Positions 1 through 12,690 of a stretch of 64,000 bases of DNA are shown piece by piece; position 1 is the first letter of the stretch; every line of letters starts with the position of its first letter. The translations under genes and the position numbers were made by a program. Below the pieces are notes generated by a model. That model was not told the DNA's origin. It did no database searches and saw only the letters and a list, made by a program, of their open reading frames with translations. This DNA is from Alphaproteobacteria bacterium (GTDB taxonomy: Bacteria > Pseudomonadota > Alphaproteobacteria > RF32 > CAG-239), in assembly GCA_017465405.1 (NCBI GenBank), contig JAFTWG010000001.1, positions 126,261 to 190,260 on the forward strand, read 5' to 3'.

Positions 1-198
1 TTTTTTTCCATAGAAGAAAATATACCCAATTTTCTATACTTTTGTGTTTATATGATATAATAAAAACAACAAAAATGCATGTATTTTAATATAAAAGAAC
101 TCAAATACCCCATTTTAATATCAATATAAACATTTTTTTTGCACATCTTGACATTTCGTTTTTTATGTGTTATATGTATATACAATAGGAGTAAGTGT

Positions 199-1467
199 AT
201 GTTATCATCTTTTAAAATTCAAAACTTTAAGTCTATTCTTGATTTGAATTTAGATTTCAAATTTGATGAAGGAAAAGCACCTAACGGATACAAAGAACTA
301 GATACTGTAGTATTTCTTGAGCCGAAAAGGAATAATAGGTATATTCCATGTTTATCTATATACGGAGCCAATGCTTCTGGCAAAACAAATATTATAAAAG
401 CCTTAGATACATTTAAAGCTATTATAACGTCTCGCATTGACAACCTATATATACCTAATAAAATCAATACTAAATATGTATCGACATTATTCGAACTATC
501 ATTTTTTATAAAAAATAAAGAATATACATATCTGGTAGAGTATAACAAAGATACAATTGTTTTAGAGTCTCTAAAAGAAAATAATGATATTATATTTGAA
601 ATTTCATTAAAAAAACAAAATCTTATAAAAGTTTCAGGTAAAGGATATACTGAGCAACGGTTAAAAGAAATTTTGGATGTAGAATGCTGTGATACTAATA
701 AAAATCAAAAAATAACCTTTTTAAATCGTATAGCCACGAACTATAGCGGATTAAATAAAATCATATCAGATGTATACAAAGCAATAAAGGAAGATATAGA
801 GATATACCCTATAAATATGTTTCCATTATCATTTGGAATGGAAAAACTGGCGGCTTCACAAGATTATAAAGCAATAAATGCATCATTCGAAAAAATTACA
901 TCATTGCTAAGAAAATTAGATATTGATATTGAGCGTATGCAACTAGATAGAAACACAACTAAACTTGCTCAACCTATAGATTTGCAATCACAACCCTATA
1001 GCATATCGATAAAAGATAATATTTTATCGGTAGATTATATCTACTCATACCATAAGGATATTGATGGTAATGAGGTTAAATTTAAATTTACAGAAGAATC
1101 TGAAGGTACTCAAATAATAGCAGGTTTATTAGGTATATTTTTATCAGCTTTAGATAGAGGAGCAACTCTTATTATTGATGAATTAGAACGTTCTTTGCAT
1201 CCCTTATTATTAACTGAGGTTGTCAGATTATTTAAAGACAAGAGATATAATCGTAAAAATGCACAATTAATATTTACTGCTCATAATACAGATATTTTAG
1301 ATGCTGATTTATTAAGAATTTCTGAAATTGGCGTTGTAAAGAAAAATGCTAATAAAGGAACTGTATTAACAAGAGTTTCTTCTTTTGAGGGAATTAGAAA
1401 TGTAACCAATTTCAGAAAACAATACCTAAATGGTGCTTTCTCTGGTATTCCGCACCCTTATATATAA
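199..1467 (+). CDS. AAA/ABC-type ATPase, AbiLi-like (AAA_21 family); track ORF begins at 139 but the ATG at 199 has an AGGAG RBS
   Basis: Walker A 'GANASGKTN', Walker B 'LIIDELERSLHP', H-loop-like 'FTAHN'. N-terminus 'FKIQNFKSI' is typical of AAA_15/21 starts. An RloB-like gene follows immediately. Confidence 0.6.
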   Translation: MLSSFKIQNFKSILDLNLDFKFDEGKAPNGYKELDTVVFLEPKRNNRYIPCLSIYGANASGKTNIIKALDTFKAIITSRIDNLYIPNKINTKYVSTLFELSFFIKNKEYTYLVEYNKDTIVLESLKENNDIIFEISLKKQNLIKVSGKGYTEQRLKEILDVECCDTNKNQKITFLNRIATNYSGLNKIISDVYKAIKEDIEIYPINMFPLSFGMEKLAASQDYKAINASFEKITSLLRKLDIDIERMQLDRNTTKLAQPIDLQSQPYSISIKDNILSVDYIYSYHKDIDGNEVKFKFTEESEGTQIIAGLLGIFLSALDRGATLIIDELERSLHPLLLTEVVRLFKDKRYNRKNAQLIFTAHNTDILDADLLRISEIGVVKKNANKGTVLTRVSSFEGIRNVTNFRKQYLNGAFSGIPHPYI

Positions 1468-1478
1468 GGATAGAAAAA

Positions 1479-2057
1479 ATGAATTATCCCAAGAATGTAT
1501 ACATTATTATATGCGAAGGTCCTTCAGAAAAAGCGTATTTGCAAGAACTTAATCGCTATCTAGAAGATAATGATTATCCAGTTACAATCGTCCCCAAAAC
1601 AATAAACAATGGGCATTTTAAGCCTGCTCAAATAAAATTTAATGAAGTTAAAAAGCAAAATCCTAAAGATATCATTTATATTTGGGTTGATAAGGATACT
1701 TATATTAGGAATGATGAAGGCGATGGGGAAAAATATAATAAAAAGCCTAAGAATATTCCCGATTTTCATTTTAATTATCATAATTTTGAAGACTTTTTAG
1801 CTATGCATATGCCTGATGATATTTTATCTAATTGGCAAGAAATATGTAGAAAAAAGAACCATTTTAACAAACCTTTACATGCAAATATTTACGAACCATT
1901 ATATAAGCAAAACATTATTAATGATTATGAAAAGGGTTCTATGCCTTTTCCAATAACAAAAGAACAAATTATCAATGCATTAAAAAATCAAAAAGATACC
2001 TCCGTCTTATTTAAGAGTGATTTTTTAAATTTATTAGATGATTTGATAAAAAAATAA
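1479..2057 (+). CDS. RloB/AbiLii-like Toprim-superfamily protein, partner of the upstream ATPase
   Basis: N-terminal 'IIICEGPSEKAYL' matches the RloB CEGxTE-type motif. A downstream acidic 'IWVDKD' is consistent with Toprim DxD. It lies 11 bp after the ATPase stop. Confidence 0.5.
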   Translation: MNYPKNVYIIICEGPSEKAYLQELNRYLEDNDYPVTIVPKTINNGHFKPAQIKFNEVKKQNPKDIIYIWVDKDTYIRNDEGDGEKYNKKPKNIPDFHFNYHNFEDFLAMHMPDDILSNWQEICRKKNHFNKPLHANIYEPLYKQNIINDYEKGSMPFPITKEQIINALKNQKDTSVLFKSDFLNLLDDLIKK

Positions 2058-2077
2058 TAAAAATTATAACAAAGTTA

Positions 2078-2383
2078 TTACATATACTTTCTAACCAAAC
2101 CTTGAATTTCAGCGGCAAGACCGGCAGCCTTAAGGAGTTTGTTATGTTTGTTGCTTTTATCCGTCATATTAAAATATGCATATAGTAACATATTTGAGAC
2201 TAAATCTGCCTTTTCCATAATCTCTTTGATAAGGTCTTCAAATGTGCCGTTATAGGCTTCGGATAAGATTTTATAACTTTTAATCTTTTTATGGTTTTGC
2301 TTCAAAAACTCGTGCAAACCGTTAATATTATTGAAGTTTTTATATCCTTTGCGATTTGTAATTGTCTCAATCAACACCTTCAT
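2078..2383 (-). CDS. hypothetical protein (101 aa)
   Basis: ORF with no recognisable motif; transcribed divergently from the 2531 ORF. Confidence 0.3.
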   Translation of the reverse strand: MKVLIETITNRKGYKNFNNINGLHEFLKQNHKKIKSYKILSEAYNGTFEDLIKEIMEKADLVSNMLLYAYFNMTDKSNKHNKLLKAAGLAAEIQGLVRKYM

Positions 2384-2530
2384 ATCATGTCCTTTTGCTT
2401 TATAAAGGTATTTATGGATTTATATGTCAGATATTGTCGTAATAAAAAGCAATAATATCTAAAATCGCTTGATTTTAAGAATATTATTCAGTTTAATAAA
2501 AATATAATCAACTGACTAGGAAAATAAGCA

Positions 2531-3379
2531 ATGAGTATAGAAGACGAGATTAAAGCCTCTAAAGATTATTTGTTAACATTTGTTAGAGAAGATATAAAAA
2601 TACCAATACTTACTATTGATAATGTTGCCAGAGTTGAAGCAATGATACAAGTAGATTCAAGATATTCTAATAATAGAGATGAATATAATGGAGAGACTTC
2701 TTCAAATTTTTTTCATAAATTAAAAGAAATATTAAAAGATAAAGAAGAATTAAAAGATAATGAAAACACTTTAGAGACTTGTATTTATCAAATAGTACGC
2801 ACAATAGATAAGGAAAACAGCACTCATTTAAATTCAAATATAAGAGCAGAGGATGCTAAAGGTGATAATATAAAAAAAACAGGAAGGTACCTAATAGCAG
2901 ATAAAATCCTGCAGTTTAATAAAAAACGTTTTCTGGAGCATTTAACAAATCCCGACAAAGCATTAAAAGAAGATGGTCTTTTTCGAATAATTGAAATAAG
3001 TGGCGGACGTAAAAATACTTCTTTTGCCAGTAAATTTTGTCATTATGCATGTTTTAACTTATTTGATGATAAGAACAAAGACAATTATTCAATTTATGAC
3101 GCCGTAATAAGGATGGCTTTACCTATTTACATCAAGTGGCATAAAGTTACCGTTGAAAACATCAATTATAAGAATGAATATCGTAAAATAAGGAATGCTT
3201 TATGTAGAATAGATTATAAATTATATCAAACTATTGTTGATACTGTTCTAAAGGCTTCCGAAAGTGATATTAGTAGAAACGGATTTGACCATTTATTATG
3301 GTACTATTTCAAAGGAAAAAATGAGCAAGAAATAGAAGAAATCTACAACAGTATAGATACCATGAACAATTCTAAATAA
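2531..3379 (+). CDS. hypothetical protein (282 aa), possible abortive-infection-type protein
   Basis: Clean ORF with an upstream 'aggaaaataagcaATG' RBS and no family recognised; the role is suggested only by the island context. Confidence 0.35.
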   Translation: MSIEDEIKASKDYLLTFVREDIKIPILTIDNVARVEAMIQVDSRYSNNRDEYNGETSSNFFHKLKEILKDKEELKDNENTLETCIYQIVRTIDKENSTHLNSNIRAEDAKGDNIKKTGRYLIADKILQFNKKRFLEHLTNPDKALKEDGLFRIIEISGGRKNTSFASKFCHYACFNLFDDKNKDNYSIYDAVIRMALPIYIKWHKVTVENINYKNEYRKIRNALCRIDYKLYQTIVDTVLKASESDISRNGFDHLLWYYFKGKNEQEIEEIYNSIDTMNNSK

Positions 3380-3603
3380 TCCTAAATAAATTAGAATATT
3401 ATATTCTTAAATGGCCGTATTAAAATAAAAACGCCGCTAAATCAGTGGATTATTATAAAAAATATTGATTTTGCGGCTTGACAGCTGATTCTTGATATGT
3501 TTAAATCAAATCGAAGCGAGAGACATCGATAAGGTGTTTATCTCAAAAAAGTGAATTTATAACCAACTTGTCCCACTTTTAAGCGGACTAAAAGGAGATT
3601 TAA

Positions 3604-4137
3604 ATGAATACGAATATTTCGCATCCGAATATGGTGCAAGCGCTTATGAAAGCGTTATATCAAAACAATTTGCCCACAATTACAGATTTATTGAACCAAG
3701 GAGTTAATGTTAATCTACCATATAACGATAACGGCTGGACACCTTTTATGTGGGTATGTAAAGAGTTTTACGAAACTGATGTTGTCAAAATGTTCTTGGC
3801 TTATGGTGGCAATATTCATTCTCGCAACAAAGCCGGTGAAACTCCATTTATGATTGCTGCTAAAAAACGAAGCAATCCGGACACATTAGATGTTTTGCTT
3901 AAAGAAGGAAGCGATATTAACGCTCAAGATAATTCCGGAAATACTGCTCTTATGAAAGTAGTTCAACATCCGCAAGCAATGATGCGTTTATGTGTAATTG
4001 AGTTTCTTATCAAAAACGGTGCCGATGTTGATATTAAAAACAATGAAGGCAAAGATATTTGGGACTATGTCGATAATCATAAAGGCTTAAATGAGTTTAT
4101 CCTTTGTACATTGTTAGAGAGGTGTGCAAATGACTAA
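3604..4137 (+). CDS. ankyrin-repeat protein (177 aa)
   Basis: Repeats 'GWTPFMWVCKE', 'GETPFMIAAKK', 'GNTALMKVV' and 'KNGADVDIKNNEGKD' match the ANK consensus. RBS 'aaaggagatttaaATG'. Confidence 0.65.
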   Translation: MNTNISHPNMVQALMKALYQNNLPTITDLLNQGVNVNLPYNDNGWTPFMWVCKEFYETDVVKMFLAYGGNIHSRNKAGETPFMIAAKKRSNPDTLDVLLKEGSDINAQDNSGNTALMKVVQHPQAMMRLCVIEFLIKNGADVDIKNNEGKDIWDYVDNHKGLNEFILCTLLERCAND

Positions 4138-4456
4138 TATTCAAGAGATAGCAAGATTAAACGATGAGTTTAGAGCCAATCCATCAAAAGGAGTACTGAT
4201 TTTAACTCAAGGTATCAGATGTAATTCTTCAGAAGATATTGCAACCATTATCAACAAAGTGCGCAATTTCAATGACTTTAATAAAGACAATAATCCATAC
4301 GGTGAAAAAGATTTTGGAGCGTTTGAATTTAAGGGAAAGAAGATTTTCTGGAAAATTGATTATTATGACCGAGAACTTCTTTACATCTCGCCCGATGCCT
4401 GCAACCCAAAACTGACAAACCGTGTACTTACCATAATGTATGCAGATGAATACTAG
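4124..4456 (+). CDS. DUF3768-like small protein (110 aa); overlaps the ankyrin gene by 14 nt
   Basis: Motifs 'IARLNDEFR', 'NNPYGEKDFGAFEF' and 'FWKIDYYD', as remembered for DUF3768 proteins of plasmids and phages. Confidence 0.45.
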   Translation: MQMTNIQEIARLNDEFRANPSKGVLILTQGIRCNSSEDIATIINKVRNFNDFNKDNNPYGEKDFGAFEFKGKKIFWKIDYYDRELLYISPDACNPKLTNRVLTIMYADEY

Positions 4457-4464
4457 GAGGAAAT

Positions 4465-4617
4465 ATGAAATACGATATTATATGTTCCACAAGTGTAGAT
4501 GAACTGATTAAATGGGTAAACCAAAAACTAAAACAAGGTTGGAAACTTCAAGGCGGAATTGCCACAATGACACATCAACCGAGTTACACCGTGTTTTATC
4601 AAGCAATTATAAAATAA
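4465..4617 (+). CDS. DUF1737-like small protein (50 aa); below the 60-aa ORF-track cutoff
   Basis: Strong RBS 'taggaggaaatATG' 8 nt after the previous stop. 'ELIKWVNQKLKQGWKLQGGIATM...YTVFYQAIIK' resembles DUF1737 phage-associated proteins. Confidence 0.4.
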   Translation: MKYDIICSTSVDELIKWVNQKLKQGWKLQGGIATMTHQPSYTVFYQAIIK

Positions 4618-4687
4618 CAGAATATTTAAGACCGAAAGGCTGTGAGACTTATTTCCTTTCACTTACAGCCTTTCATAGGAGAAAGCC

Positions 4688-5272
4688 ATGACAAACAGTG
4701 AATTTGTAGATGATAAGAAAATTAAGGACATTTTGAACTTTATAAAATCAATGAAACATGCCGAGCAAATAAGAATGATGTTTCTTTGTTCCTTAAACGG
4801 TATGCGTTCAATCAATTTTGCATATTTGCAAGTAAAAGATGTTTTTAATGATGAGTTAAAAGTAAAAGACGTAATATGTCTTGATTATGATAAGAACAAA
4901 GGCAAGAACAAGTGCGAATATTATATGAACAGTCAATTAAAGAAAGAGTTTTGCGAATATTTGAAATATCTTCAAAACAAATGGGCTGATAAACTTTCGC
5001 CGGAAACATATCTGTTTACAAGCCAAAAACTCAATAAACCATATAACCGAGCATCAATAAGCAGGATGTTCAGTTCAATTTATAAAAAGTTCAACATTAA
5101 AGGGGCAAGCCATTTAGGCAGGCACTTGTTTGTATCAAAGTTGGTAAACTCCGGAGTTAATATCTGTTTGGTGCAAAAACTGGCTAATCATAAAAACATA
5201 TCAACTACACAGCATTACTTCAATTATAACCAACAAATGCTTGCCAATGCCGTAGAGAATGTGAAGATATGA
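4688..5272 (+). CDS. tyrosine recombinase (phage-integrase family), catalytic domain only; N-terminal core-binding domain absent
   Basis: Catalytic residues are seen: Arg in 'NGMRSINF', 'HLGRHLF' (HxxR) and 'HKNISTTQHY' (H...Y nucleophile). At 194 aa it is too short to include the SAM-like N-domain. Confidence 0.55.
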   Translation: MTNSEFVDDKKIKDILNFIKSMKHAEQIRMMFLCSLNGMRSINFAYLQVKDVFNDELKVKDVICLDYDKNKGKNKCEYYMNSQLKKEFCEYLKYLQNKWADKLSPETYLFTSQKLNKPYNRASISRMFSSIYKKFNIKGASHLGRHLFVSKLVNSGVNICLVQKLANHKNISTTQHYFNYNQQMLANAVENVKI

Positions 5273-5652
5273 TAACACTAGATAAAACGTGTTTTTTAGC
5301 GCATTGCGATTGGATTTATAACAATCGGTACAAGTTACAAAACAGACTTTGTGCTGATTTTGTGGTATCCGGATTTGTTATAAATGCTTTTGCCAGTCCG
5401 TATTACAGTTATTGTATCGATAAAATAACGGTCAGAAACTTAATCAAACTTTGGAACAATGGATTTGTTTATAATAATTTGCCATTAATCCATTACAGCC
5501 AATCTTATGGTGACAACTCAACACATATTGCTTACATTGATAATGGAAACCTAATTAATCAAACATTCTTCTACAATGATGAACAAAAGTATATCCCGAC
5601 AAATGAAGTAAAACAGATTTTGAAAGATTTGAGAATAAGTGTCAATAAATGA
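5269..5652 (+). CDS. hypothetical protein (127 aa); overlaps the recombinase stop by 4 nt
   Basis: ATGA overlap suggests translational coupling; no motif recognised. Confidence 0.3.
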   Translation: MITLDKTCFLAHCDWIYNNRYKLQNRLCADFVVSGFVINAFASPYYSYCIDKITVRNLIKLWNNGFVYNNLPLIHYSQSYGDNSTHIAYIDNGNLINQTFFYNDEQKYIPTNEVKQILKDLRISVNK

Positions 5653-5749
5653 CATTTCGCAAATTTAATTAGTTGTCATCAAGATTATTTTTATCTATCA
5701 TCATCTTACAGCACAAAGAATAATAGATAAAGATGTTAATAGCAGAAAT

Positions 5750-6163
5750 ATGAAGGAATATAATATGACAACATATAGAAAAGTATATAAAGGATTAACA
5801 TTAGAGCAAAAATCTTTATTAAGAGATTTACTCGTTTATCAAATAAGTAAGTATGATATTCAGAATAACATATCTAAACGTAGTACAGCTGTACATTTTC
5901 TGCATGATATATATGAAGATGATTTAATAGCATTTGATAGTACTATGATAATGATGGATGACATAATTAAAATATGCAGAACTGTTCCAGAAAACGAAAG
6001 AGCAAATATTCAGAGGCAGTTATTGTTAAATTCTGATGACGGACTAGTAGGTATTTTATCAATTTACTCTAATGAAACAATAAATGGACTAAAGGAAATT
6101 TTATCTTCCAAAGATAATATTCATATGGCATCAACAAGTTCTGCATGCTGGAGACATATTTAA
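5750..6163 (+). CDS. hypothetical protein (137 aa)
   Basis: ORF only. Confidence 0.3.
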   Translation: MKEYNMTTYRKVYKGLTLEQKSLLRDLLVYQISKYDIQNNISKRSTAVHFLHDIYEDDLIAFDSTMIMMDDIIKICRTVPENERANIQRQLLLNSDDGLVGILSIYSNETINGLKEILSSKDNIHMASTSSACWRHI

Positions 6164-6400
6164 AACTATTAATTATCAAAATTCTCACCTCTCAAAATGT
6201 TAAACAATGTTTGAAATTCTAACAAAGTTTAACATTTTTATTTTACTCATAAGCCCTACCCTATAAAAACACTAGGAAAACTGTCTATTACAAAGAAAAT
6301 GTTAAAGAAGGAATATTCTTTAACATTTTTATTTTTTTGCTTGTAATATAATTTAAATTAGTATAATATGGATTATATTAAATAATATATGAGGTGGATT

Positions 6401-7801
6401 ATGGAATTTATCGGAAGAACGAAAGAGCTTAAAGATTTAGAGCAAGAATATAAAAATAAACATTCCTTTGTGGTTTTGTATGGTCGGCGCAGAATTGGAA
6501 AAACCGAACTGATTAAGCAATTTATTAAAGATAAACCTGCTCTTTATTTTTTGGCAACGGAAGAGGCTGAACCACAGTGTATGAAAAGATTTTCGGCATC
6601 TTTAGCAGAATTTACCAAACAAGAATATTTAAAAAATGCAAACTTTAACGATTGGATAGAATTGTTTAAGATTTTTGCCGATGTGCAAAATAACCAAACT
6701 AAGATATTGGTTTTAGATGAATTTCAATATTTGGTGAATACTAATCCTGCATTTACCTCTGTATTTCAAAAAGTTTGGGATGAAGTCTTATCAAAAAAGG
6801 ACATAATGGTTATCATCTGCGGTTCTTATATCAATATGATGACACGTCAAGTTTTATCTGAAAAAAGCCCTCTATATGGTCGCCGCACCGCACAAATAAG
6901 ATTAGCGCCACTATCGTTTTGTGAAATTCAAGAGCACTATGCAACAGTTCCTTTTGCCGAATTGGTAGAACAATATGCCGTTACCGGAGGTGTTCCGAAA
7001 TATATGGAATTTTTTGCCAACGACAGTACACTGATGGAAAACATTGCCAGAACAGTTCTGAATACGAACGGTTTTTTGTATGATGAACCGGCATTTTTGC
7101 TCAATAAGGAAGTTAAGGAACCGGTTAACTATTACTCCATAATGAAAGTTATTGCAGCTGAAAATCACAAACTATCGGAAATAGCTTCGGCAATGCAAGT
7201 AGAAAGTAACCGTTTAACACCATATTTGGAAACCTTGCAGGGTTTGTATTTGTTGGAAAAACGTGTTCCGGTAACAGAAAACAACCCGGAAAAAAGCCGT
7301 AAAGGTCTTTATGTTATGCGAGATATTTTTATGCGTTTTTGGTTTAAGTTTGTATTTCCTTACAAAGGAGAACTTGAACTGGATAACCTTAATTTTGTTT
7401 TAAGTAAGCTGAATGAACATTTTATTGATAATCATGTTGCTTTTGTTTATGAAGATATTTGCCGTAACATATTTGCCGAACTATGCAAAAAAAGACTGAT
7501 TGATTTTGTGCCGTCACGTATCGGTTCATATTGGGGTAAAAACGAAGAAATTGATTTGGTTGCCGTAGATGAAAGCAATAAGCGTATTTTTGCAGCGGAA
7601 TGCAAATATTACAAAGATGACAAACCGGTTGATGTAGGGGTTTTCGCAAAATTACAAGAAAAGTGCAAGACTAAAGATTTTTCCGGAAACGACATTACTT
7701 ACGGGCTATTCTCCAAGAGTGGTTTTACTAGCCGTTTAAAAGAAATTGCCGCCGGAAATGATAAATTAATATTAATTAACGGCGTAAAACTGGAAAAGTA
7801 A
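6401..7801 (+). CDS. ATP-binding protein, archaeal-type ATPase with DUF234 C-terminal domain
   Basis: Walker A 'LYGRRRIGKTELI', Walker B 'ILVLDEFQYL', and a C-terminal region typical of DUF234. RBS 'gaggtggattATG' at 6401; the track starts at 6389. Confidence 0.6.
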   Translation: MEFIGRTKELKDLEQEYKNKHSFVVLYGRRRIGKTELIKQFIKDKPALYFLATEEAEPQCMKRFSASLAEFTKQEYLKNANFNDWIELFKIFADVQNNQTKILVLDEFQYLVNTNPAFTSVFQKVWDEVLSKKDIMVIICGSYINMMTRQVLSEKSPLYGRRTAQIRLAPLSFCEIQEHYATVPFAELVEQYAVTGGVPKYMEFFANDSTLMENIARTVLNTNGFLYDEPAFLLNKEVKEPVNYYSIMKVIAAENHKLSEIASAMQVESNRLTPYLETLQGLYLLEKRVPVTENNPEKSRKGLYVMRDIFMRFWFKFVFPYKGELELDNLNFVLSKLNEHFIDNHVAFVYEDICRNIFAELCKKRLIDFVPSRIGSYWGKNEEIDLVAVDESNKRIFAAECKYYKDDKPVDVGVFAKLQEKCKTKDFSGNDITYGLFSKSGFTSRLKEIAAGNDKLILINGVKLEK

Positions 7802-8181
7802 CCTTGTATTTTCATATTAAAAATAATTTCAAGCATCGAGTAAACTTTTTATCAATTTAACTTGGTCTTTCATTGCCAATATTTCGCTGTAATGATTGAC
7901 AAGTACATTGTAAAGTTGAGCGGATTTTTCTTTTATTCCTGCGTCCTCCTGCCAGCCAGAGTTCAAAAGTCGTCAAAATGGCGATTTTTTCTTTTATATA
8001 CAAGCATTTAAGCCGGTTCGAAGATTAGCCACCAAATATACTATACCCCAGATAATCTTCGAACTAATTTTAGCAAGAATTTAACATTTTCAATGAGTTA
8101 TGAAGTTCAGCATATATTTAAAATTTTACTTTACATAATGACATCAATCATTTACTCTGAACATTATAGGAGAAAACTCAT

Positions 8182-9396
8182 ATGTTTACATTGTTAGAAT
8201 TATTCAAAAATATAAACACAACCAAGGCATATTTTTTAGGAGCATTGATAACAGCAAATGAATGCTATATACAGGATAATATAAAATATTGGTCCGTACC
8301 GATAAGACATAATCCTGGACAAGCAACTCCTCACGAACTAAAACAGCACTATAATTTCCTAAAAGTACTGTCTAGAAAGGTTAATGGAAATATTTTAACA
8401 TCTGATATTTTGGGAAATAAAATGGGATTTGCTTCAGGAAAGCAAGGTTTTGCTGTTTTATTTACAAGTGATTTAAAAACAAATTTATCATCAATATTAC
8501 AAGCATCTCAGGTAATATTAACAATGAATTCAGATATAAAAAGATCTTTTTTAATTGGTGTTTTTGATGGGAGATCTTCTCTGGATAAAAATAGTACAAC
8601 GGACGAAATACGAAATATAGCGGTTGATTGTGAAGATAAAGCTGGACATGATATTATTTCATCGATCTTGTCTGATTTTGGAATTACCCCATTAAATCAA
8701 AACGAATCTCGAGAAAGATTGGAAGGCGGTAGACCCAGAAAAAATCAGTTAAGAATTCCTAAAAAGTATGTCTCTGAGTTTGCGACCAATATTGGTTTTA
8801 TTTCTCCTCTGAGATTTAAAGCATTTAAAAATAGCTTTTCTGAAATAATTCCTTATATAAAGAATGAAGACTCTTTATTACCAGGTTTAAAAAGTCTTTC
8901 TTATACCCAGACAGAAGATACCATAGAAGAAAATAAACTTGATGATTTGGTTATAAAAAGCACTAATATTGATAATATTAATCCTATTCTCCATACTTAT
9001 TCAGGGATTGCCAAACCCAAACCTGAACCTATTGTCTCTAAAGGACGTAAATTATATGCAAGAAATCCTCAAACAGCAGTTAATGCTTTAACATTGGCAT
9101 CCTACAAGTGTGAAATTGATGGTAATCACTACACGTTTATTAGAAAGAAAAATAACAAACCCTACACAGAACCTCATCACTTAGTACCCATGGCGTTTTC
9201 TGAAAGATTTGATGTTTCTCTTGATGTAGAAGAAAATATTGTGTCCTTATGCAGTAACTGTCATAATTTTTTGCACTATGGACGTGATGCAAAAGAGCTG
9301 TTAAATATTCTTTACCCAAAACGAAAAAATATGCTAGCTAACGTAGGTATAGATATTGATATAGATGACTTGTATGAAATGTACAACTTAGATTAA
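8182..9396 (+). CDS. putative restriction endonuclease: N-terminal LAGLIDADG-like double motif plus C-terminal HNH nuclease
   Basis: C-terminal 'CEIDGNH...EPHHLVP...LCSNCHNFLH' is an HNH motif. The N-terminus carries 'AYFLGALITANEC' and 'SFLIGVFDGRSSL' about 105 aa apart, which is the LAGLIDADG spacing. It converges on and overlaps the m5C methyltransferase stop by 4 nt. Confidence 0.5.
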   Translation: MFTLLELFKNINTTKAYFLGALITANECYIQDNIKYWSVPIRHNPGQATPHELKQHYNFLKVLSRKVNGNILTSDILGNKMGFASGKQGFAVLFTSDLKTNLSSILQASQVILTMNSDIKRSFLIGVFDGRSSLDKNSTTDEIRNIAVDCEDKAGHDIISSILSDFGITPLNQNESRERLEGGRPRKNQLRIPKKYVSEFATNIGFISPLRFKAFKNSFSEIIPYIKNEDSLLPGLKSLSYTQTEDTIEENKLDDLVIKSTNIDNINPILHTYSGIAKPKPEPIVSKGRKLYARNPQTAVNALTLASYKCEIDGNHYTFIRKKNNKPYTEPHHLVPMAFSERFDVSLDVEENIVSLCSNCHNFLHYGRDAKELLNILYPKRKNMLANVGIDIDIDDLYEMYNLD

Positions 9397-10448
9397 TCTT
9401 CATTTAGGAGAATTGTTTCAGCTATTGCCTTTGCTAATAAAGGAGGAACGGCGTTACCGACTTGTAGCATCTGGTCCATTTTCTTTCCATAAAAAATAAA
9501 ATTATCTGGAAAAGACTGTAATCTTGCTGCTTCCCTAACAGTGAGACATCTATCCTGAAATGGCAAGGTAAATTGTCCTGATGCAGGGGTGTCAAAGCGA
9601 GTTGTTATTGTTCTTGAAAAACCTTTAGGATTCATTCGCGTCCATGTACCACTATAAATAGATTTTGTTTGTTGGTCTTTAGGTAAATCATTTTTAGTGC
9701 TAGTTAACGTAACTAATTTTAATCTATCTAAAGCTATTTTACTATGCTTTGTTGAGATATGATTCCATACTCCATCTGACTTTATCCTCATAAGTTTTTG
9801 GTAATCACTTTTGGGCTGTTGCGTATATGGAACAAATTCTAGACCTTCGCCTGATTTTAAGATTGGCAAATCAGATATAGCATCTTCTACACAAGTTACC
9901 ATATGATTAGTATTAGGTAGTCTGTACCTTAAGTCACTGCCTAATTTACCTAAAAAAACAGCGCGTCTTCTTATTTGAGGAACTCCAAAATCTTCAGCCT
10001 TTAATATTTTTACATCAATATAATATCCTAATTCACCAAAACTATGAATAATCTGTTCTTTAAAATATCCATTTTCTGCTGTTAAAATATTTGGAACATT
10101 TTCTAACACAAAAAACTTAGGCTTAACAACTGAAACAACTTCGACAAACTTTTTGAACATAAAATTACGTTCGTCGTTTAGTCCTATCCTTTTTCCTTTT
10201 TGTGAAAATCCCTGACATGGCGGTCCTCCCATGACAACATCAATCTGATCCACATATTTTGAAAACTCTTTTACTATATCTATATCTCTAATATCCCTAG
10301 AATCAACTATAGTATCTGGATGATTTTTTTTATAAGCATTTGCAATACTTTTATTATATTCATTAGCCCAAAGTACTTTAAATCCAGCTAATTCAAATCC
10401 TAAAGACAGACCGCCAACACCAGCAAACAGATCAATAGCTGTTTTCAC
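9393..10448 (-). CDS. DNA (cytosine-5)-methyltransferase
   Basis: Motif I 'DLFAGVGGLSLGF', motif IV 'GGPPCQGFS' and an 'ENV' motif. Confidence 0.85.
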   Translation of the reverse strand: MKTAIDLFAGVGGLSLGFELAGFKVLWANEYNKSIANAYKKNHPDTIVDSRDIRDIDIVKEFSKYVDQIDVVMGGPPCQGFSQKGKRIGLNDERNFMFKKFVEVVSVVKPKFFVLENVPNILTAENGYFKEQIIHSFGELGYYIDVKILKAEDFGVPQIRRRAVFLGKLGSDLRYRLPNTNHMVTCVEDAISDLPILKSGEGLEFVPYTQQPKSDYQKLMRIKSDGVWNHISTKHSKIALDRLKLVTLTSTKNDLPKDQQTKSIYSGTWTRMNPKGFSRTITTRFDTPASGQFTLPFQDRCLTVREAARLQSFPDNFIFYGKKMDQMLQVGNAVPPLLAKAIAETILLNED

Positions 10449-11176
10449 TTAAACCCTCCCAATTTTCTAGTTGCAATATCATAATATTGCTCTTCCAGCT
10501 CTATCCCGTAAAAGCGTCTTTTTGCCTTTAATGCAGCTAACCCTGTAGAACCACTTCCCATAAAAGGATCTAGTACCAAATCGTTCTCATTTGTTAGTAG
10601 CTTTATAAAATGAGATAAAATTTCTTCTGGTTTCTGCGTTGGATGTTTGCCTTCTTTTTGTTCTTTAGCACTAATAACAGCTGATTCTATATAATCATGA
10701 ACAATTTTGCCTTCATTATTGAAAGTACCTGTTTTTCCTTGATTTATAAAATAAATCCAAGCTTCTGTTGAATTGATAAAATGTAGATTCATATTTCTTG
10801 GCATAGGATTTTTTTTATGCCAAATTCCAGTGGTTTTATAATAGAAACCATATTTTTCAGCAATATGAATGATTGTTTCTACTCTTATAATCGACATAAA
10901 CATTATCATAGCGCCACGCTTTTTTAAAACTCTTGCGCTTTCTTGGAAGAATTTATTCATCAATTCCTCCCATTTATCAGCTGCGGCAAAATCCCAATTT
11001 GATGCTGAAAAATGGTTTTTCCTTAATGCTCCAAGGTTTGTTTCTCTATTTTTCATAAACAATCCAAGATTATAAGGAGGATCAGTAAGTATGAGATCAA
11101 CACTTCTATCTCGTATGTCATGCATTTCTGACACACAATCACCTAAACCTAAGACATATTCCTTTTCTTTAATCAT
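10445..11176 (-). CDS. DNA methyltransferase, beta-class N6-adenine/N4-cytosine
   Basis: 'LILTDPPYN' (motif IV) precedes 'DPFMGSGSTG' (motif I). There is a 4-nt ATGA overlap with the downstream m5C methyltransferase. Confidence 0.8.
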   Translation of the reverse strand: MIKEKEYVLGLGDCVSEMHDIRDRSVDLILTDPPYNLGLFMKNRETNLGALRKNHFSASNWDFAAADKWEELMNKFFQESARVLKKRGAMIMFMSIIRVETIIHIAEKYGFYYKTTGIWHKKNPMPRNMNLHFINSTEAWIYFINQGKTGTFNNEGKIVHDYIESAVISAKEQKEGKHPTQKPEEILSHFIKLLTNENDLVLDPFMGSGSTGLAALKAKRRFYGIELEEQYYDIATRKLGGFK

Positions 11177-11496
11177 ATCTCATACTTTTTTTACTTAATT
11201 ACTCTAATGTGTTAACATAAAACGAATAATCTAAAAAATAAATAAAAAAATAAAGATACTATCAATTTTTCTTAGTAATGTATTTTTATAATAAACATAA
11301 TTTAGTTGCTATATGATGTCTCTACAATAGCTGAATTTACTTCTTCTTATAAATCTATATCAAATCCTAAATTTCGTACATGGGGTAAAAAACAACTTTT
11401 ATTATTCAAAAATAAAAGTTACTTTAACCTCGGTTTCCTAGCACCTAAAGTTAAAAACAATCGTATATCATCTCGCAAATTGTGTGTTCTATTTAG

Positions 11497-11531
11497 CCAA
11501 GAAAAAAGTCGTCATTGTTGACGACTTTTTT
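11497..11531. terminator. hairpin 'aaaaagtcgtcattgttgacgactttttt', bidirectional terminator at the nhaA 3' end
   Basis: Perfect inverted repeat flanked by A- and T-runs. Confidence 0.5.
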
Positions 11532-12690
11532 TGATGTGTTCTTGCCATTGAAAAATGGCTGCTCCCCATAATGCCGATAGTAATGAGCCACATAAAATTC
11601 CTAATCTCACTTCTCCTTGCATATATTCCGGCAAAGACAATTTGCCCACAAACAAGGCCATTGTAAAACCTATACCGGCAATAGCTGAAACTCCATATAA
11701 GTCCGCCAATTTAACATCTTTGGGGAACGAAGCAATTCCTATTTTGATAAGCATCCATGTACTCATAAATATACCTATTTGCTTTCCAAAAAATAAACCG
11801 AATATAATCCCTAAAGTCAATGTATGAGTAAATGTTTCTAATGTTATTCCTCCTAAATATAACCCCGCAGATGCAAAAGCAAAAACCGGCAAAATAACAA
11901 AATCGACCCAAGGTTTTAATTTATGGGACAAAGCTTCTAAGGGAGAACTTTTTCTTAAATGAACTCTCATCGGATAGGCCATAGCGACAACAACACCCGA
12001 TATTGTTGTATGAATACCACCGTTTAGGAAACAATACCACAAAACAACTCCTAATATAAAATAAGGAATAAAATTCGTTATTTCCATTTTATTCAAGAAA
12101 TATAATGCAATACAGGTTAAACTTGCGTAGCCTAACAAATCAATGGAAACACCTTGATTATAGAATAAGGCAATAATTAAAATAGCGCCTAAATCATCAA
12201 ATATTGCAATTGCCAACAGAAATATTTTTACAGCCTGCGGAACACTTTTGCCTACCAACATTAAAATACAAACAGCAAAAGCAATATCGGTTGCGGTCGG
12301 AATAGCCCAGCCATTCATATACTGAGGAGAATTATTATTTAAAATTGCATAAATGATTGCAGGACACACAATCCCTCCGAGTGCCGCTAATGCCGGAACA
12401 ATAATTTGTTTTGCATCTGACAAAAATCCCTCTTTCATTTCTCTTTTTAGTTCTAAGCCAATTTGCAAAAAGAAAAACACCATCAAAACATCATTAATCC
12501 ACCACTCCAGAGAGCGGGAAAATTTTATATCTGCCAAACCTAAAAACAATTGCGTTTCCCAAAAATGGGATATTGGTTCACGCCACGGACTATTTGCTAA
12601 ACAGACCGAAGCAAACATTGACAAAATCATTAAAATTCCGCTGGAAACTTCACTGCTGAAAAAATTACTGATTTTTTGTTTAATATCCAT
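11512..12690 (-). CDS. nhaA: Na+/H+ antiporter NhaA
   Basis: Polytopic membrane protein with an NhaA-like N-terminus and core ('ANSPWREPISHFWETQLFLG', 'ATDIAFA', 'AIFDDLGAI'). Confidence 0.8.
   Translation of the reverse strand: MDIKQKISNFFSSEVSSGILMILSMFASVCLANSPWREPISHFWETQLFLGLADIKFSRSLEWWINDVLMVFFFLQIGLELKREMKEGFLSDAKQIIVPALAALGGIVCPAIIYAILNNNSPQYMNGWAIPTATDIAFAVCILMLVGKSVPQAVKIFLLAIAIFDDLGAILIIALFYNQGVSIDLLGYASLTCIALYFLNKMEITNFIPYFILGVVLWYCFLNGGIHTTISGVVVAMAYPMRVHLRKSSPLEALSHKLKPWVDFVILPVFAFASAGLYLGGITLETFTHTLTLGIIFGLFFGKQIGIFMSTWMLIKIGIASFPKDVKLADLYGVSAIAGIGFTMALFVGKLSLPEYMQGEVRLGILCGSLLSALWGAAIFQWQEHIKKSRQQ

Follow-up and report, generated by a model that had tools for sequence, protein, structure and literature searches.

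Gamma-Mobile-Trio (GMT) islands, found in Vibrio and other Gammaproteobacteria, are mobile elements whose mobility has been demonstrated and whose cargo consists mostly of anti-phage defence genes (bioRxiv 10.1101/2023.03.28.534373). A compact recombination site is known from Tn4430, where the IRS combines an inverted motif pair around a short spacer with two direct-repeat motifs at a fixed distance (PMC2847244). One of the protein domains considered here, DUF1737 (PF08410), is the capsid-binding domain of the gp84 (NanS-p) esterase of Stx phage phi24B, in which it forms a small module of a helix and three strands that oligomerises as hexamers (bioRxiv 10.64898/2026.04.10.717836). For a second, DUF3768, literature searches with the terms ‘DUF3768’ and ‘PF12599’ returned no paper, and the family is also absent from the text and supplements searched of PMC11541004.

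Here we describe a locus in which genes for an ankyrin-repeat protein (Ank), DUF3768 and DUF1737 are the front of a five-gene operon that continues with a small tyrosine recombinase (Int194) and an orphan protein (o127). The operon is accompanied by a 136-bp non-coding element that may serve as a recombination site. The locus lies in a 64,000-nucleotide stretch of DNA, hereafter the window, and its features are collected in Table 1.

Table 1. Features of the locus; positions are counted from the first nucleotide of the window.
Feature	Position	Strand	Length	Description
o101	2078..2383	-	101 aa	divergent framework gene, no known domain
operon leader	3432..3603	+	~170 bp	5' of Ank; TTGACA 3478-3483; non-canonical putative -10 TTAAAT 3501-3506; long 5' UTR
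Ank	3604..4137	+	177 aa	first operon gene; ankyrin-repeat protein
DUF3768	4130..4456	+	108 aa	ATG start overlapping the Ank stop
DUF1737	4465..4617	+	50 aa	AGGAGG ribosome-binding site
hairpin	4634..4674	+	13-bp stem	in the 70-nt DUF1737-recombinase gap; no T-run after the stem
Int194	4688..5272	+	194 aa	minimal tyrosine recombinase, catalytic domain only
o127	5269..5652	+	127 aa	orphan protein; start overlaps the recombinase stop
o137	5750..6163	+		variable cargo between operon and site; outside the conserved module
double-palindrome element	6194-6329		136 bp	non-coding, sharply bounded, downstream of the operon
palindrome P1	6194..6238			AAAATGTTAAAC - 21-nt spacer - GTTTAACATTTT; left edge of the site
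palindrome P2	6296..6329			AAAATGTTAAAGAA - GGAATA - TTCTTTAACATTTT; right edge of the site

Anatomy and conservation of the operon

A reading of the letters alone (the sequence-only reading) had described the Ank, DUF3768 and DUF1737 genes as an overlapping three-gene operon. All three open reading frames were located, tightly packed and co-oriented, and the overlap is real; the unit, however, is not complete at three genes, as it comprises five genes and the 136-bp site. The overlap of Ank with the next frame had been put at 14 nt, a value that applies only to a mechanical GTG start at 4124. Homologues of DUF3768 begin with M-T/N/S-N throughout, which fits the ATG at 4130 behind GAGAGG, and the true overlap is therefore 8 nt. 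A gap of 8 nt follows DUF3768, the AGGAGG of the DUF1737 gene overlapping the TAG stop of its neighbor, and Int194 and o127 overlap by 4 nt (ATGA). The 50-residue frame with a very strong ribosome-binding site that had been proposed at this position is borne out by the AGGAGG motif, by the source’s own gene caller and by its pairwise dN/dS (median 0.08).

The domain assignments of that reading were likewise confirmed by profile search, in which all three proteins pass the Pfam thresholds. Namely, Ank matches PF00023 (E=1e-21) and PF12796 (E=1e-20); DUF3768 matches PF12599 (E=4.6e-32, 110.3 bits against a cut-off of 25), with residues 25-107 covering profile positions 1-83 of 83; and DUF1737 matches PF08410 (E=3.4e-7, 30.5 bits against a cut-off of 24), with residues 2-50 covering positions 3-52 of 53. 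The source’s precomputed hits label this last match ‘weak’. DUF3768 has a near-neutral charge, as read from its sequence, and no recognisable DNA-binding fold, and a fold search with it gave no informative match. An apparent DUF3768-DUF1737 fusion (P0005 and P0008; 170 aa), at first taken as Rosetta-stone evidence and the sole supposed evidence of a physical link, was rejected as a gene-calling artefact because the L176 DNA has in-frame TAG stops that the source’s caller read as Q.

Int194 matches PF00589 (E=1.5e-21, 77 bits) across residues 6-182. Its catalytic hexad is intact, with R40, K73, H142, R145, H168 and Y177 invariant among 69 unique family sequences. The catalytic match begins at residue 6 and the modal family length is 194 aa, leaving Int194 without an N-terminal core-binding (SAM-like) domain; its closest solved relatives are Xer-type enzymes. 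One widespread lineage (L088-L090) has a frameshifted Int194 gene beside an intact trio, which indicates that the recombinase is dispensable at least there. The o127 gene lies directly 3' of the recombinase in about 40 loci, and directly 3' of the trio in variants without a recombinase. It is rare, with only 46 clusters among 1.84 billion representatives; C28 and H75 are invariant, and neither its structure nor a fold search was informative.

The gene order of the module recurs in about 50 loci of metagenome-assembled genomes of gut and rumen Alphaproteobacteria. Across 80 genome loci compared, all five genes are present in 30 and at least part of the module in 51; Ank is immediately 5' of DUF3768 in 42 of these 51, DUF1737 is found in 43, and the trio keeps the same order in 37, so that the three families do co-occur elsewhere. 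Two to three module copies occur in each of 13 assemblies. Purifying selection acts across all conserved module genes (pairwise median dN/dS of 0.05-0.21), with values of 0.17 for Ank, 0.10 for DUF3768 and 0.046, the lowest in the operon, for Int194. The two small frames of the trio are thus coding and have homologues, as the earlier reading had supposed.

The wider framework around the operon takes in the divergent o101 gene and, upstream of the window, a second Ank paralogue. In 35-40 related loci o101 lies on the minus strand upstream of Ank (dN/dS 0.20), and it has no match in Pfam, NCBIfam, PHROG or PADLOC; in the window, a cargo gene at 2531-3379 separates it from the operon. The leader is nearly identical among five loci whose sequences are unrelated further upstream; the conserved leader starts at 3432. 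We place a putative operon promoter in this leader by eye; a consensus promoter scan of 3432..3603 called none. The gap between DUF1737 and the recombinase is 2, about 70 or about 420 nt depending on the lineage, and in the window it holds a hairpin with an RNA folding energy of -20.2 kcal/mol (z=-4.4). A search of positions 1-12000 against Rfam gave no match. The o137 gene is confined to the window’s own lineage, and elsewhere its slot holds GNAT, NERD, GmrSD, RT or PHP-SMC genes.

The double-palindrome element

The 136-bp element carries four copies of one half-site motif, AAATGTTAAA, arranged as two palindromes. Sequence to the left of P1 is unrelated from locus to locus, and the right half of the element begins with GCCnTTTTCAAAAC. 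In P2, conserved arms of 14 bp enclose a 6-bp spacer that differs between loci; these inverted arms around a spacer of 6-8 bp, near a recombinase gene, are the arrangement of lox, dif and IRS-type sites, and the 14-6-14 type of geometry resembles lox and dif cores. ATGTTAAA occurs both in the half-site and in the XerD arm of the E. coli dif site; dif mimicry was considered and set aside, as ATGTTAAA is oriented the opposite way relative to the spacer.

The length of the element is fixed in 82 of 87 unique copies, the total staying at 134-136 bp though the middle diverges. A T-to-C change hits both arms of a palindrome, in P1 and P2 in L024 and in P1 only in L019 and L105. What is conserved is the arm sequence and not the pairing, a left arm of AAA(A/C)AA standing opposite an unchanged TTCTTT.

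In genome loci whose downstream flank spans 4 kb or more, Int194 and the element occur together in 28, Int194 without the element in 3, the element without Int194 in 0 and neither in 28 (Fisher p=1e-13). Among the loci with neither are five close relatives in which Ank, DUF3768 and o127 are retained but Int194 and the element have been lost together. The association also holds in reverse: a metagenome search with P2 alone returned 67 loci and recovered the operon, and 24 of the 28 loci so found whose P1-side flank extends for 3 kb or more carry Int194 in the expected orientation. The element approaches the Int194 stop to a minimum of about 155 bp, in a lineage without o127.

Most loci have a single copy of the element, and a second copy is present only in L023, L126 and L101. 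Extra cassettes in L023 and L126 are bounded by a partial second copy, whereas L101 has two full copies; L126 furthermore has a mosaic junction inside the element, and in L035 the element is inverted. The P2 spacers on either side of an inserted cassette differ, a pattern at odds with simple conservative exchange at P2. Since the site is intact in the chromosome, it is not a split attP. A screen for long-range inverted repeats around an invertible segment found none that recurs, and it was this screen that revealed P1 and P2. Analogous palindromes were sought beside the pairs of short recombinase and DUF3768 genes of high-GC taxa, and none was convincing; L081 has one P1-like palindrome, AAAATGCTAC-N25-GTAGCATTTT.

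Island setting and proposed role

The sequence-only reading had placed the trio in a defence-island context, and the neighboring genes agree: an AAA_21 ATPase with RloB, a PDC-S27-type ATPase, a type IV HNH enzyme and two methyltransferases lie within 11 kb, and McrBC and AIPR just upstream of the window. Across loci the module is always set amid changing defence cargo, including pAgo, R-M, McrBC, retron-type RT, HipA, GmrSD and others, and its own core stays identical or nearly so. Between L087 and L088 the core is 97.7% identical and the flanks are swapped; att-like repeats at these cargo junctions were discarded as an explanation because the breakpoints are gene borders with no common repeat. 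Searches for att duplications, excised circles and empty sites found none, there was no circular contig among all fetched loci, and neither a relaxase in the islands examined nor a relaxase or T4SS gene in the window was found.

Outside the module, distant DUF3768 genes are located in plasmid regions of the leading or establishment type, in early-gene arrays of lytic phages, or beside other short recombinases. DUF3768 is found on 500 plasmids, of which 258 are conjugative. Its neighbors in six sampled plasmids include an ArdC-like zincin, SSB, a large ParB, DUF2493, DUF932 and DUF4942, and it is by these neighbor genes, not by mapped oriT sites, that we judge the placement to be in leading regions. 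In lytic Rhizobium phages (one phage neighborhood sampled) the gene lies amid small early-type genes. A viral origin was considered and rejected: DUF3768 is present in only 13 phage records, and the P2 pattern has 0 matches in IMG/VR viral contigs. Direct adjacency to short tyrosine recombinases (193-229 aa) is seen in distant taxa and in different order (L069 from Paracoccus, L071 and L078); in L080, an acidobacterium of the Terriglobales, the two genes are about 1.6 kb apart, and in L081 DUF3768 precedes the recombinase gene.

Because the module is constant while its defence cargo turns over, it behaves like the backbone of a mobile element. We propose, with a probability of about 0.45 and thus tentatively, that gut and rumen Alphaproteobacteria harbour a family of defence islands, mobile or recombining, whose invariant backbone consists of the five-gene operon and the 136-bp site and serves as an establishment-plus-recombination core. 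Int194 would bind the four half-sites and recombine at the site, and this recombination could either resolve a circular form or dock and exchange cargo. Tandem partial copies, mosaic junctions and one inversion are candidate comparative traces of recombination there. Ank, DUF3768, DUF1737 and probably o127 would be co-translated partners in one protein complex, which would neutralise or modulate a host factor and in this way help the element to establish itself in a new cell; solo DUF3768 proteins encoded in the leading regions of plasmids or amid phage early genes would do the same job. It is this placement of DUF3768 homologues that makes an anti-defence or establishment role plausible. The recombinase may share the trio’s transcript because both are required right after entry.

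Several other explanations deserve consideration. The trio, possibly with o127, could provide accessory subunits of the recombinase that act in site recognition, synapsis control or directionality at P1 and P2, with DUF1737 and Ank tethering DUF3768 or driving its oligomerisation, at the service of an Int194 that has no core-binding domain. The shared operon of coupled or closely spaced genes is consistent with this, as are the short recombinases adjoining DUF3768 in distant taxa and the four half-sites at fixed spacing, as in accessory-arm systems (TnpI/IRS, PMC2847244). We nevertheless consider it rather unlikely: no recombinase adjoins DUF3768 in the six plasmid and one phage neighborhoods sampled, the trio is kept in loci that have lost Int194 and the site (L036, L040-L042, L044) or have a frameshifted Int194, and neither the charge of DUF3768 nor its fold suggests DNA binding. 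In a gene-capture platform, the 136-bp site would be the place where Int194 docks circular defence cassettes and thereby assembles and reshuffles the islands, Ank-DUF3768-DUF1737(-o127) replacing the missing DNA-binding domain; such a platform would be analogous to an integron in function, although its proteins and site architecture are unrelated, and it appears unlikely to us. We find it similarly improbable that P1 and P2 are a bidirectional terminator or insulator pair, or an oriT, marking the operon end, with arrays arising by homologous recombination. Each palindrome folds into a hairpin with A and T runs beside it, the P2 spacers on the two sides of a cassette are unlike, and a nearby oriT would make sense beside leading-region-type DUF3768 homologues. 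Yet the conservation of arm sequence over pairing, a fixed length around a diverging middle, the disappearance of the element and Int194 together from close relatives in which the remaining genes are retained, the lack of an Rfam family match and the lack of a relaxase in any island examined all count against it.

The trio had also been suggested to be a phage-defence cassette, and nothing that we tested supports a stand-alone system of this kind. Such a system would have DUF1737 sensing or binding phage capsid, with DUF3768 acting as effector and Ank as scaffold. PADLOC-DB v2 gave no match for DUF3768, DUF1737, Int194 or o127, and Ank matches the repeat regions of PDC-M72A and MzaA only. Moreover, the module stays constant amid the turnover of defence genes at 2-3 copies per genome, it is tightly linked to a recombinase and a DNA site, and the DUF3768 homologues are on the side of the invader (conjugative plasmids and lytic phages), all of which makes this reading quite unlikely. 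An addiction module of the toxin-antitoxin type stabilising the island, with DUF3768 as toxin and either the small DUF1737 protein or Ank as antidote, seems to us very unlikely.

Comparison with described systems

With the five-gene operon and the 136-bp site as a search handle, defence islands can be located in little-studied, uncultured Alphaproteobacteria of gut and rumen, a use for which GMT islands, integrons and satellite hot spots are precedents. Between and around the conserved blocks, the cargo abounds in known systems as well as in unannotated genes, which are candidate new systems. For DUF3768, a family of more than 1000 members, short tyrosine recombinases and plasmid establishment regions are the first genomic context. 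Furthermore, the small size of both the catalytic-domain-only recombinase and its candidate site permits direct testing, and the pair, if active, could become a tool.

As in the GMT islands, a few conserved genes, including a tyrosine recombinase and proteins with no assigned function, define islands of defence cargo and serve as a handle. There is no sequence kinship, however: Int194 scores 29.1 bits on the GmtY model against a cut-off of 340, and the other operon proteins have no match in NCBIfam, including to GmtZ and GmtX. The partners here are Ank, DUF3768, DUF1737 and o127, the recombinase is reduced to its catalytic domain, and mobility is inferred rather than demonstrated. The NCBIfam Xer models also score below their cut-offs on Int194 (XerA 59.6/220, XerD 51.2/330, XerC 51.1/335 bits).

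The likeness to integrons lies in a tyrosine recombinase near a site with variable, often same-strand cargo, and in tandem sites that bracket cassettes (L023, L126 and L101). Int194 is nevertheless far below the integron integrase cut-offs (TIGR02249, 30.8 against 265 bits; PRK15417, 16.9 against 435). Individual cassettes here lack bounding sites of their own, as in L087, where a 5.5-kb cargo of six genes has no internal site, and the site follows the recombinase gene on the same strand instead of lying divergently.

On alphaproteobacterial conjugative plasmids DUF3768 keeps the company of plasmid leading-region genes (PMC11541004), namely ArdC-like, SSB, large ParB, DUF932 and DUF4942 genes. 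In the window, by contrast, it is chromosomal and joined to Ank, DUF1737 and a recombinase, with no relaxase or T4SS gene near. DUF1737 differs from its counterpart in phi24B gp84 in being a free-standing protein of 50 aa in a non-phage context with no capsid genes near, and a capsid-binding role here would be pure extrapolation from that case. The TnpI/IRS system of Tn4430 (PMC2847244) shares with this locus a recombinase gene near a compact site (~116-136 bp) with four motifs. The four motifs here form two palindromes, there is no transposase, and Int194 is the putative partner of the candidate site.

Conserved gene order around the DUF3768 gene

The trio, whose genes encode an ankyrin-repeat (Ank), a DUF3768 and a DUF1737 protein, comes from an uncultured alphaproteobacterium of the gut, on a scaffold 714 kb long. 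These domains had been guessed in a sequence-only reading, and Pfam recovered each of them, with Ank at E=1e-21 and above its curated threshold, DUF3768 at 110 bits (threshold 25) and DUF1737 at 30.5 bits (threshold 24). In profile searches of Pfam, NCBIfam and PADLOC, the Ank protein hit nothing beyond generic repeat models. The overlap of the first two genes also exists, but measures 8 nt rather than the 14 nt claimed: every homologue of the DUF3768 gene begins with M-(T/N/S)-N, which matches the ATG at 4130 with its upstream GAGAGG and therefore places the start 8 nt inside the Ank gene. As that reading described, the 50-aa gene starts 8 nt past the DUF3768 stop, with an AGGAGG ahead of it that overlaps this stop; it is also predicted by the source database's own gene caller.

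Features of the island and its surroundings (window coordinates)
Feature	Position	Strand	Detail
AAA_21/AAA_15 ATPase and RloB-like protein	139/199-2057		422 aa; 192 aa
o101	2078-2383	opposite to trio	101 aa
Leader block	3432-3603		~170 bp
Ank	3604-4137	+	
DUF3768	4124/4130-4456	+	start 4130
DUF1737	4465-4617	+	50 aa
Int194	4688-5272		194 aa, tyrosine recombinase
o127	5269-5652		127 aa, orphan
P1	in 6194-6329		AAAATGTTAAAC, 21-nt spacer, GTTTAACATTTT
P2	in 6194-6329		AAAATGTTAAAGAA, GGAATA, TTCTTTAACATTTT
Cargo right of P1/P2	6389-11176		
Na+/H+ antiporter gene	11512-12690		
Ank-like ORF	26691-29012	-	773 aa

Scanning a DUF3768 alignment against one genome per species yielded 80 loci, the ORFs of which were then profile-searched with the window's proteins. 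At least part of a shared gene order was found in 51 of the 80; the other 29, which are more distant, carried DUF3768 alone. Among the 51 loci, Ank lies directly 5′ of DUF3768 in 42 and DUF1737 directly 3′ in 43, followed by the recombinase gene Int194 in 44 and then, in about 40, by the orphan o127, whose start overlaps the Int194 stop. Thirty loci hold the complete five-gene set, and 13 assemblies carry two or three copies of the module on different contigs. The divergent gene o101 and, further upstream, a second Ank paralogue are also recurrent. Median pairwise dN/dS was 0.17 for Ank, 0.10 for DUF3768, 0.08 for DUF1737, 0.046 for Int194, 0.21 for o127 and 0.20 for o101. Given this recurrent order and low dN/dS, the three genes do co-occur elsewhere and do carry a coding signal, the two points on which the sequence-only reading had made its three-gene cassette depend. 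The leader block 5′ of Ank is near-identical in five loci, with unrelated DNA beyond it, and delimits the operon on its left side; it contains a TTGACA hexamer, and a consensus scan called no promoter within it.

In the lineage of loci L088-L090, whose DUF3768 protein (P0031) is found on 151 contigs, Int194 is split into ORFs of 61 and 133 aa (10497-11080) beside intact Ank, DUF3768 and DUF1737 genes, and appears to be decaying. The 773-aa ORF, well outside the island, matches the operon-Ank profile at E=4.5e-66, and ankyrin-repeat proteins seem abundant in this genome.

Two database proteins of 170 aa each, P0005 and P0008, were considered as natural DUF3768-DUF1737 fusions and rejected as an artefact of the genetic code applied by the source's gene caller. 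The DNA behind P0008 (locus L176, 820-990) has an in-frame TAG at both places where the protein has Q and does not translate to the query protein; in this lineage the two genes share a frame with a single TAG between them. Since TAG stops had been read as Gln, these records are no evidence of fusion. It is conserved adjacency and coupling that point to a possible physical interaction among the trio.

A minimal recombinase and a double palindrome

Int194 is a bare catalytic domain (PF00589 over residues 6-182 of 194), and R40, K73, H142, R145, H168 and Y177 are invariant among 69 unique sequences. Among proteins of solved structure, Xer-type enzymes are its closest relatives, and the equivalog models scored far under their cut-offs against it. 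An inverted-repeat screen brought out a recurrent palindrome, which in the window belongs to a 136-bp element 3′ of the operon made up of P1 and P2. Alignment of 86 unique copies revealed almost invariant arms and a variable 6-bp P2 spacer. The middle of the element splits into subtypes, its total length nonetheless being constant in 82 of 87 copies, and its two flanks are unrelated from one locus to the next. It is the arm sequence that is conserved, not base pairing, with AAA(A/C)AA opposite an unchanged TTCTTT. In some lineages T-to-C changes occur in both arms of a palindrome: L024 has them in P1 and P2, L019 and L105 in P1 alone. Arm conservation, fixed length and these paired changes suggest that all four half-sites may be read by one protein. 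Rfam yielded no family matches in the site region.

When the count was limited to genome loci whose downstream flank was 4 kb or longer, 28 of 31 with Int194 had the site, versus 0 of 28 without it (Fisher p=1e-13). Within the close clade only, the corresponding counts were 28/31 and 0/6 (p=4e-5), the latter group including five loci that have kept Ank, DUF3768 and o127 and lost both Int194 and the site. The P2 pattern alone, used as a metagenome query, returned 67 loci; 28 of them reached 3 kb or more on the side of P1, and of these 24 had Int194 in the expected orientation, 23 of the 24 together with DUF3768. Viral contigs contained no match to the same pattern. Where one lineage lacks o127, the site starts ~155 bp past the Int194 stop. 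The comparative evidence that Int194 and the double palindrome would form a recombinase-site pair is strong, with catalysis predicted.

Several loci carry traces of rearrangement at the site. In L023 and L126, a full element is followed by a related cassette, a partial second copy (right half and P2) and then the gene that lies directly 3′ of the single element in other loci. L126 is a mosaic that changes from L038-like to L030-like sequence (97.8%) exactly at the start of the element's right half. Two full copies lie 6.7 kb apart in L101, solitary P2 sites occur in L146 and L115, and in L035 (8390-8542) the element and ~19 nt of flank are inverted relative to L034, L030 and L039, with both flanks collinear. 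These traces fit a recombination hot spot; they fall short of proof for site-specific exchange because a cassette has different P2 spacers on its two sides and similar products could come from homologous recombination between copies of 75-136 bp. L035 also has a NERD/zinc-ribbon gene in place of a GNAT gene between o127 and the element.

Defence cargo and island limits

The defence-island setting proposed from the sequence was borne out by precomputed-Pfam neighbourhoods, where constant genes are ringed and interrupted by varying cargo. Across loci this cargo includes short pAgo with a DpnII-like nuclease, type I and type IIG R-M, Eco57I with ResIII, reverse transcriptase, HipA, DUF2130, KAP NTPase, GmrSD, AbiEii and a PHP-SMC ATPase. 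In the window's lineage the cargo pairs AAA_21 with RloB and adds an ATPase of the PDC-S27 type, a type IV HNH enzyme and two methyltransferases; McrBC and AIPR lie upstream. Loci L087 and L088 have a common 4.3-kb core (97.7% identity) and differ in the left flank and the post-o127 cassette.

The AAA_21/AAA_15 ATPase and RloB-like protein, a candidate OLD/Abi-type two-gene defence system, sit between the upstream Ank paralogue and o101 in this lineage. Cargo to the right encodes a DUF234/ATPase_2 protein that hits the PADLOC candidate PDC-S27 (E=1.5e-61), a protein of 404 aa whose C-terminus resembles type IV methyl-directed HNH enzymes, and C5 and N4/N6 DNA methyltransferases from convergent genes. 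A PDC-S27 gene lies directly 3′ of the site in several unrelated islands (L047, L054, L087), in two tandem copies in L047. G+C is 30.7% in the island part (1-11200) versus 34.7% in 11200-64000, and the right edge appears to fall between the methyltransferase (11176) and the antiporter gene.

L001 is the window's locus together with DNA upstream of it (its coordinates are window coordinates + 5871), and the L001 positions that follow lie upstream of the window. Six copies of an iteron-like repeat, CGAAATGTATATTTCC, at 540-674, spaced 20-31 bp (mostly 21-22 bp), adjoin a minus-strand 174-aa gene that stands where an HTH_36 gene is found in other islands; they may act as operators or as an origin. 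A 64-nt sequence repeated perfectly and in direct orientation (1051-1114 and 4969-5032) covers the ribosome-binding site of the upstream Ank paralogue and the first 16 nt of that gene. Its two copies enclose a 3.9-kb cassette of three genes, one of them for an HSP70/ParM-like ATPase, and the cassette looks like a recent insertion with its target duplicated. The conserved non-coding motif CTATTATAATAG occurs at L001 758-769 and in 18 other loci, each of which has a single copy, on the plus strand in every case. The motif is found a few hundred bp 5′ of the second Ank paralogue (~260-310 in two loci measured), or ~430 bp 5′ of DUF3768 in loci without Ank, and the left L087/L088 breakpoint falls within it.

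Possible roles of the trio and relation to known islands

DUF3768 is found on 500 plasmids, mostly of Rhodobacterales and Sphingomonadales, 258 of them typed conjugative. Its neighbours on six sampled plasmids include an ArdC-like zincin, SSB, large ParB proteins, DUF2493, DUF932, DUF4942, DUF1173, Fic and an SOS-response peptidase; on one cyanobacterial plasmid an Ank gene lies 750 bp downstream. In lytic Rhizobium phages it sits within runs of small hypothetical genes. It directly follows other short tyrosine recombinases (193-229 aa) in distant loci L069 (Paracoccus), L071 and L078 (proteobacterial MAGs), follows a longer recombinase in two more, and lies ~1.6 kb from a short one in L080 (acidobacterium). 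Six distant loci (L069, L071, L078, L057, L058, L095) encode directly 3′ of DUF3768 a 175-186-aa protein with a weak BtrH_N match, invariant Cys24, His136 and Asp152 in papain-like order, and no detectable relation to o127. The Paracoccus gene set of recombinase, DUF3768 and this partner lies directly after a McrBC system. DUF1737 family members are mostly small free-standing proteins. In the NanS-p esterase of phi24B, a 2026 preprint identifies DUF1737 as the N-terminal domain, which binds capsid and forms hexamers (bioRxiv 10.64898/2026.04.10.717836).

The best-supported reading is that 3432-5652 and 6194-6329 form the backbone of a mobile or recombining defence-island family. The trio would then be co-translated partners with a role in the element's own life cycle, not in host defence. 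Early expression on entering a new cell is all that leading-region neighbourhoods on plasmids, early-gene arrays of phages and positions beside integrases have in common, and for this reason we tentatively assign DUF3768, at slightly below even odds, to establishment or counter-defence, with Ank and DUF1737 as lineage-specific partners. Alternatively, the trio might be accessory subunits of the recombinase, next to which it is usually encoded and without which Ank and DUF3768 persist in five loci. It might also be a stand-alone defence system, set among defence genes yet part of the constant order rather than the varying cargo, or its coupled genes might be an addiction module. The P1/P2 site, similarly, might have a non-recombinational role.

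Most loci here have a single site, and no sites lie inside multi-gene cargo, so the arrangement is not that of an integron array. Defence-rich islands with a core module centred on a recombinase have precedents in GMT islands, integrons and mobilisable islands; the protein set, minimal recombinase and double-palindrome site described here matched none of these when tested.
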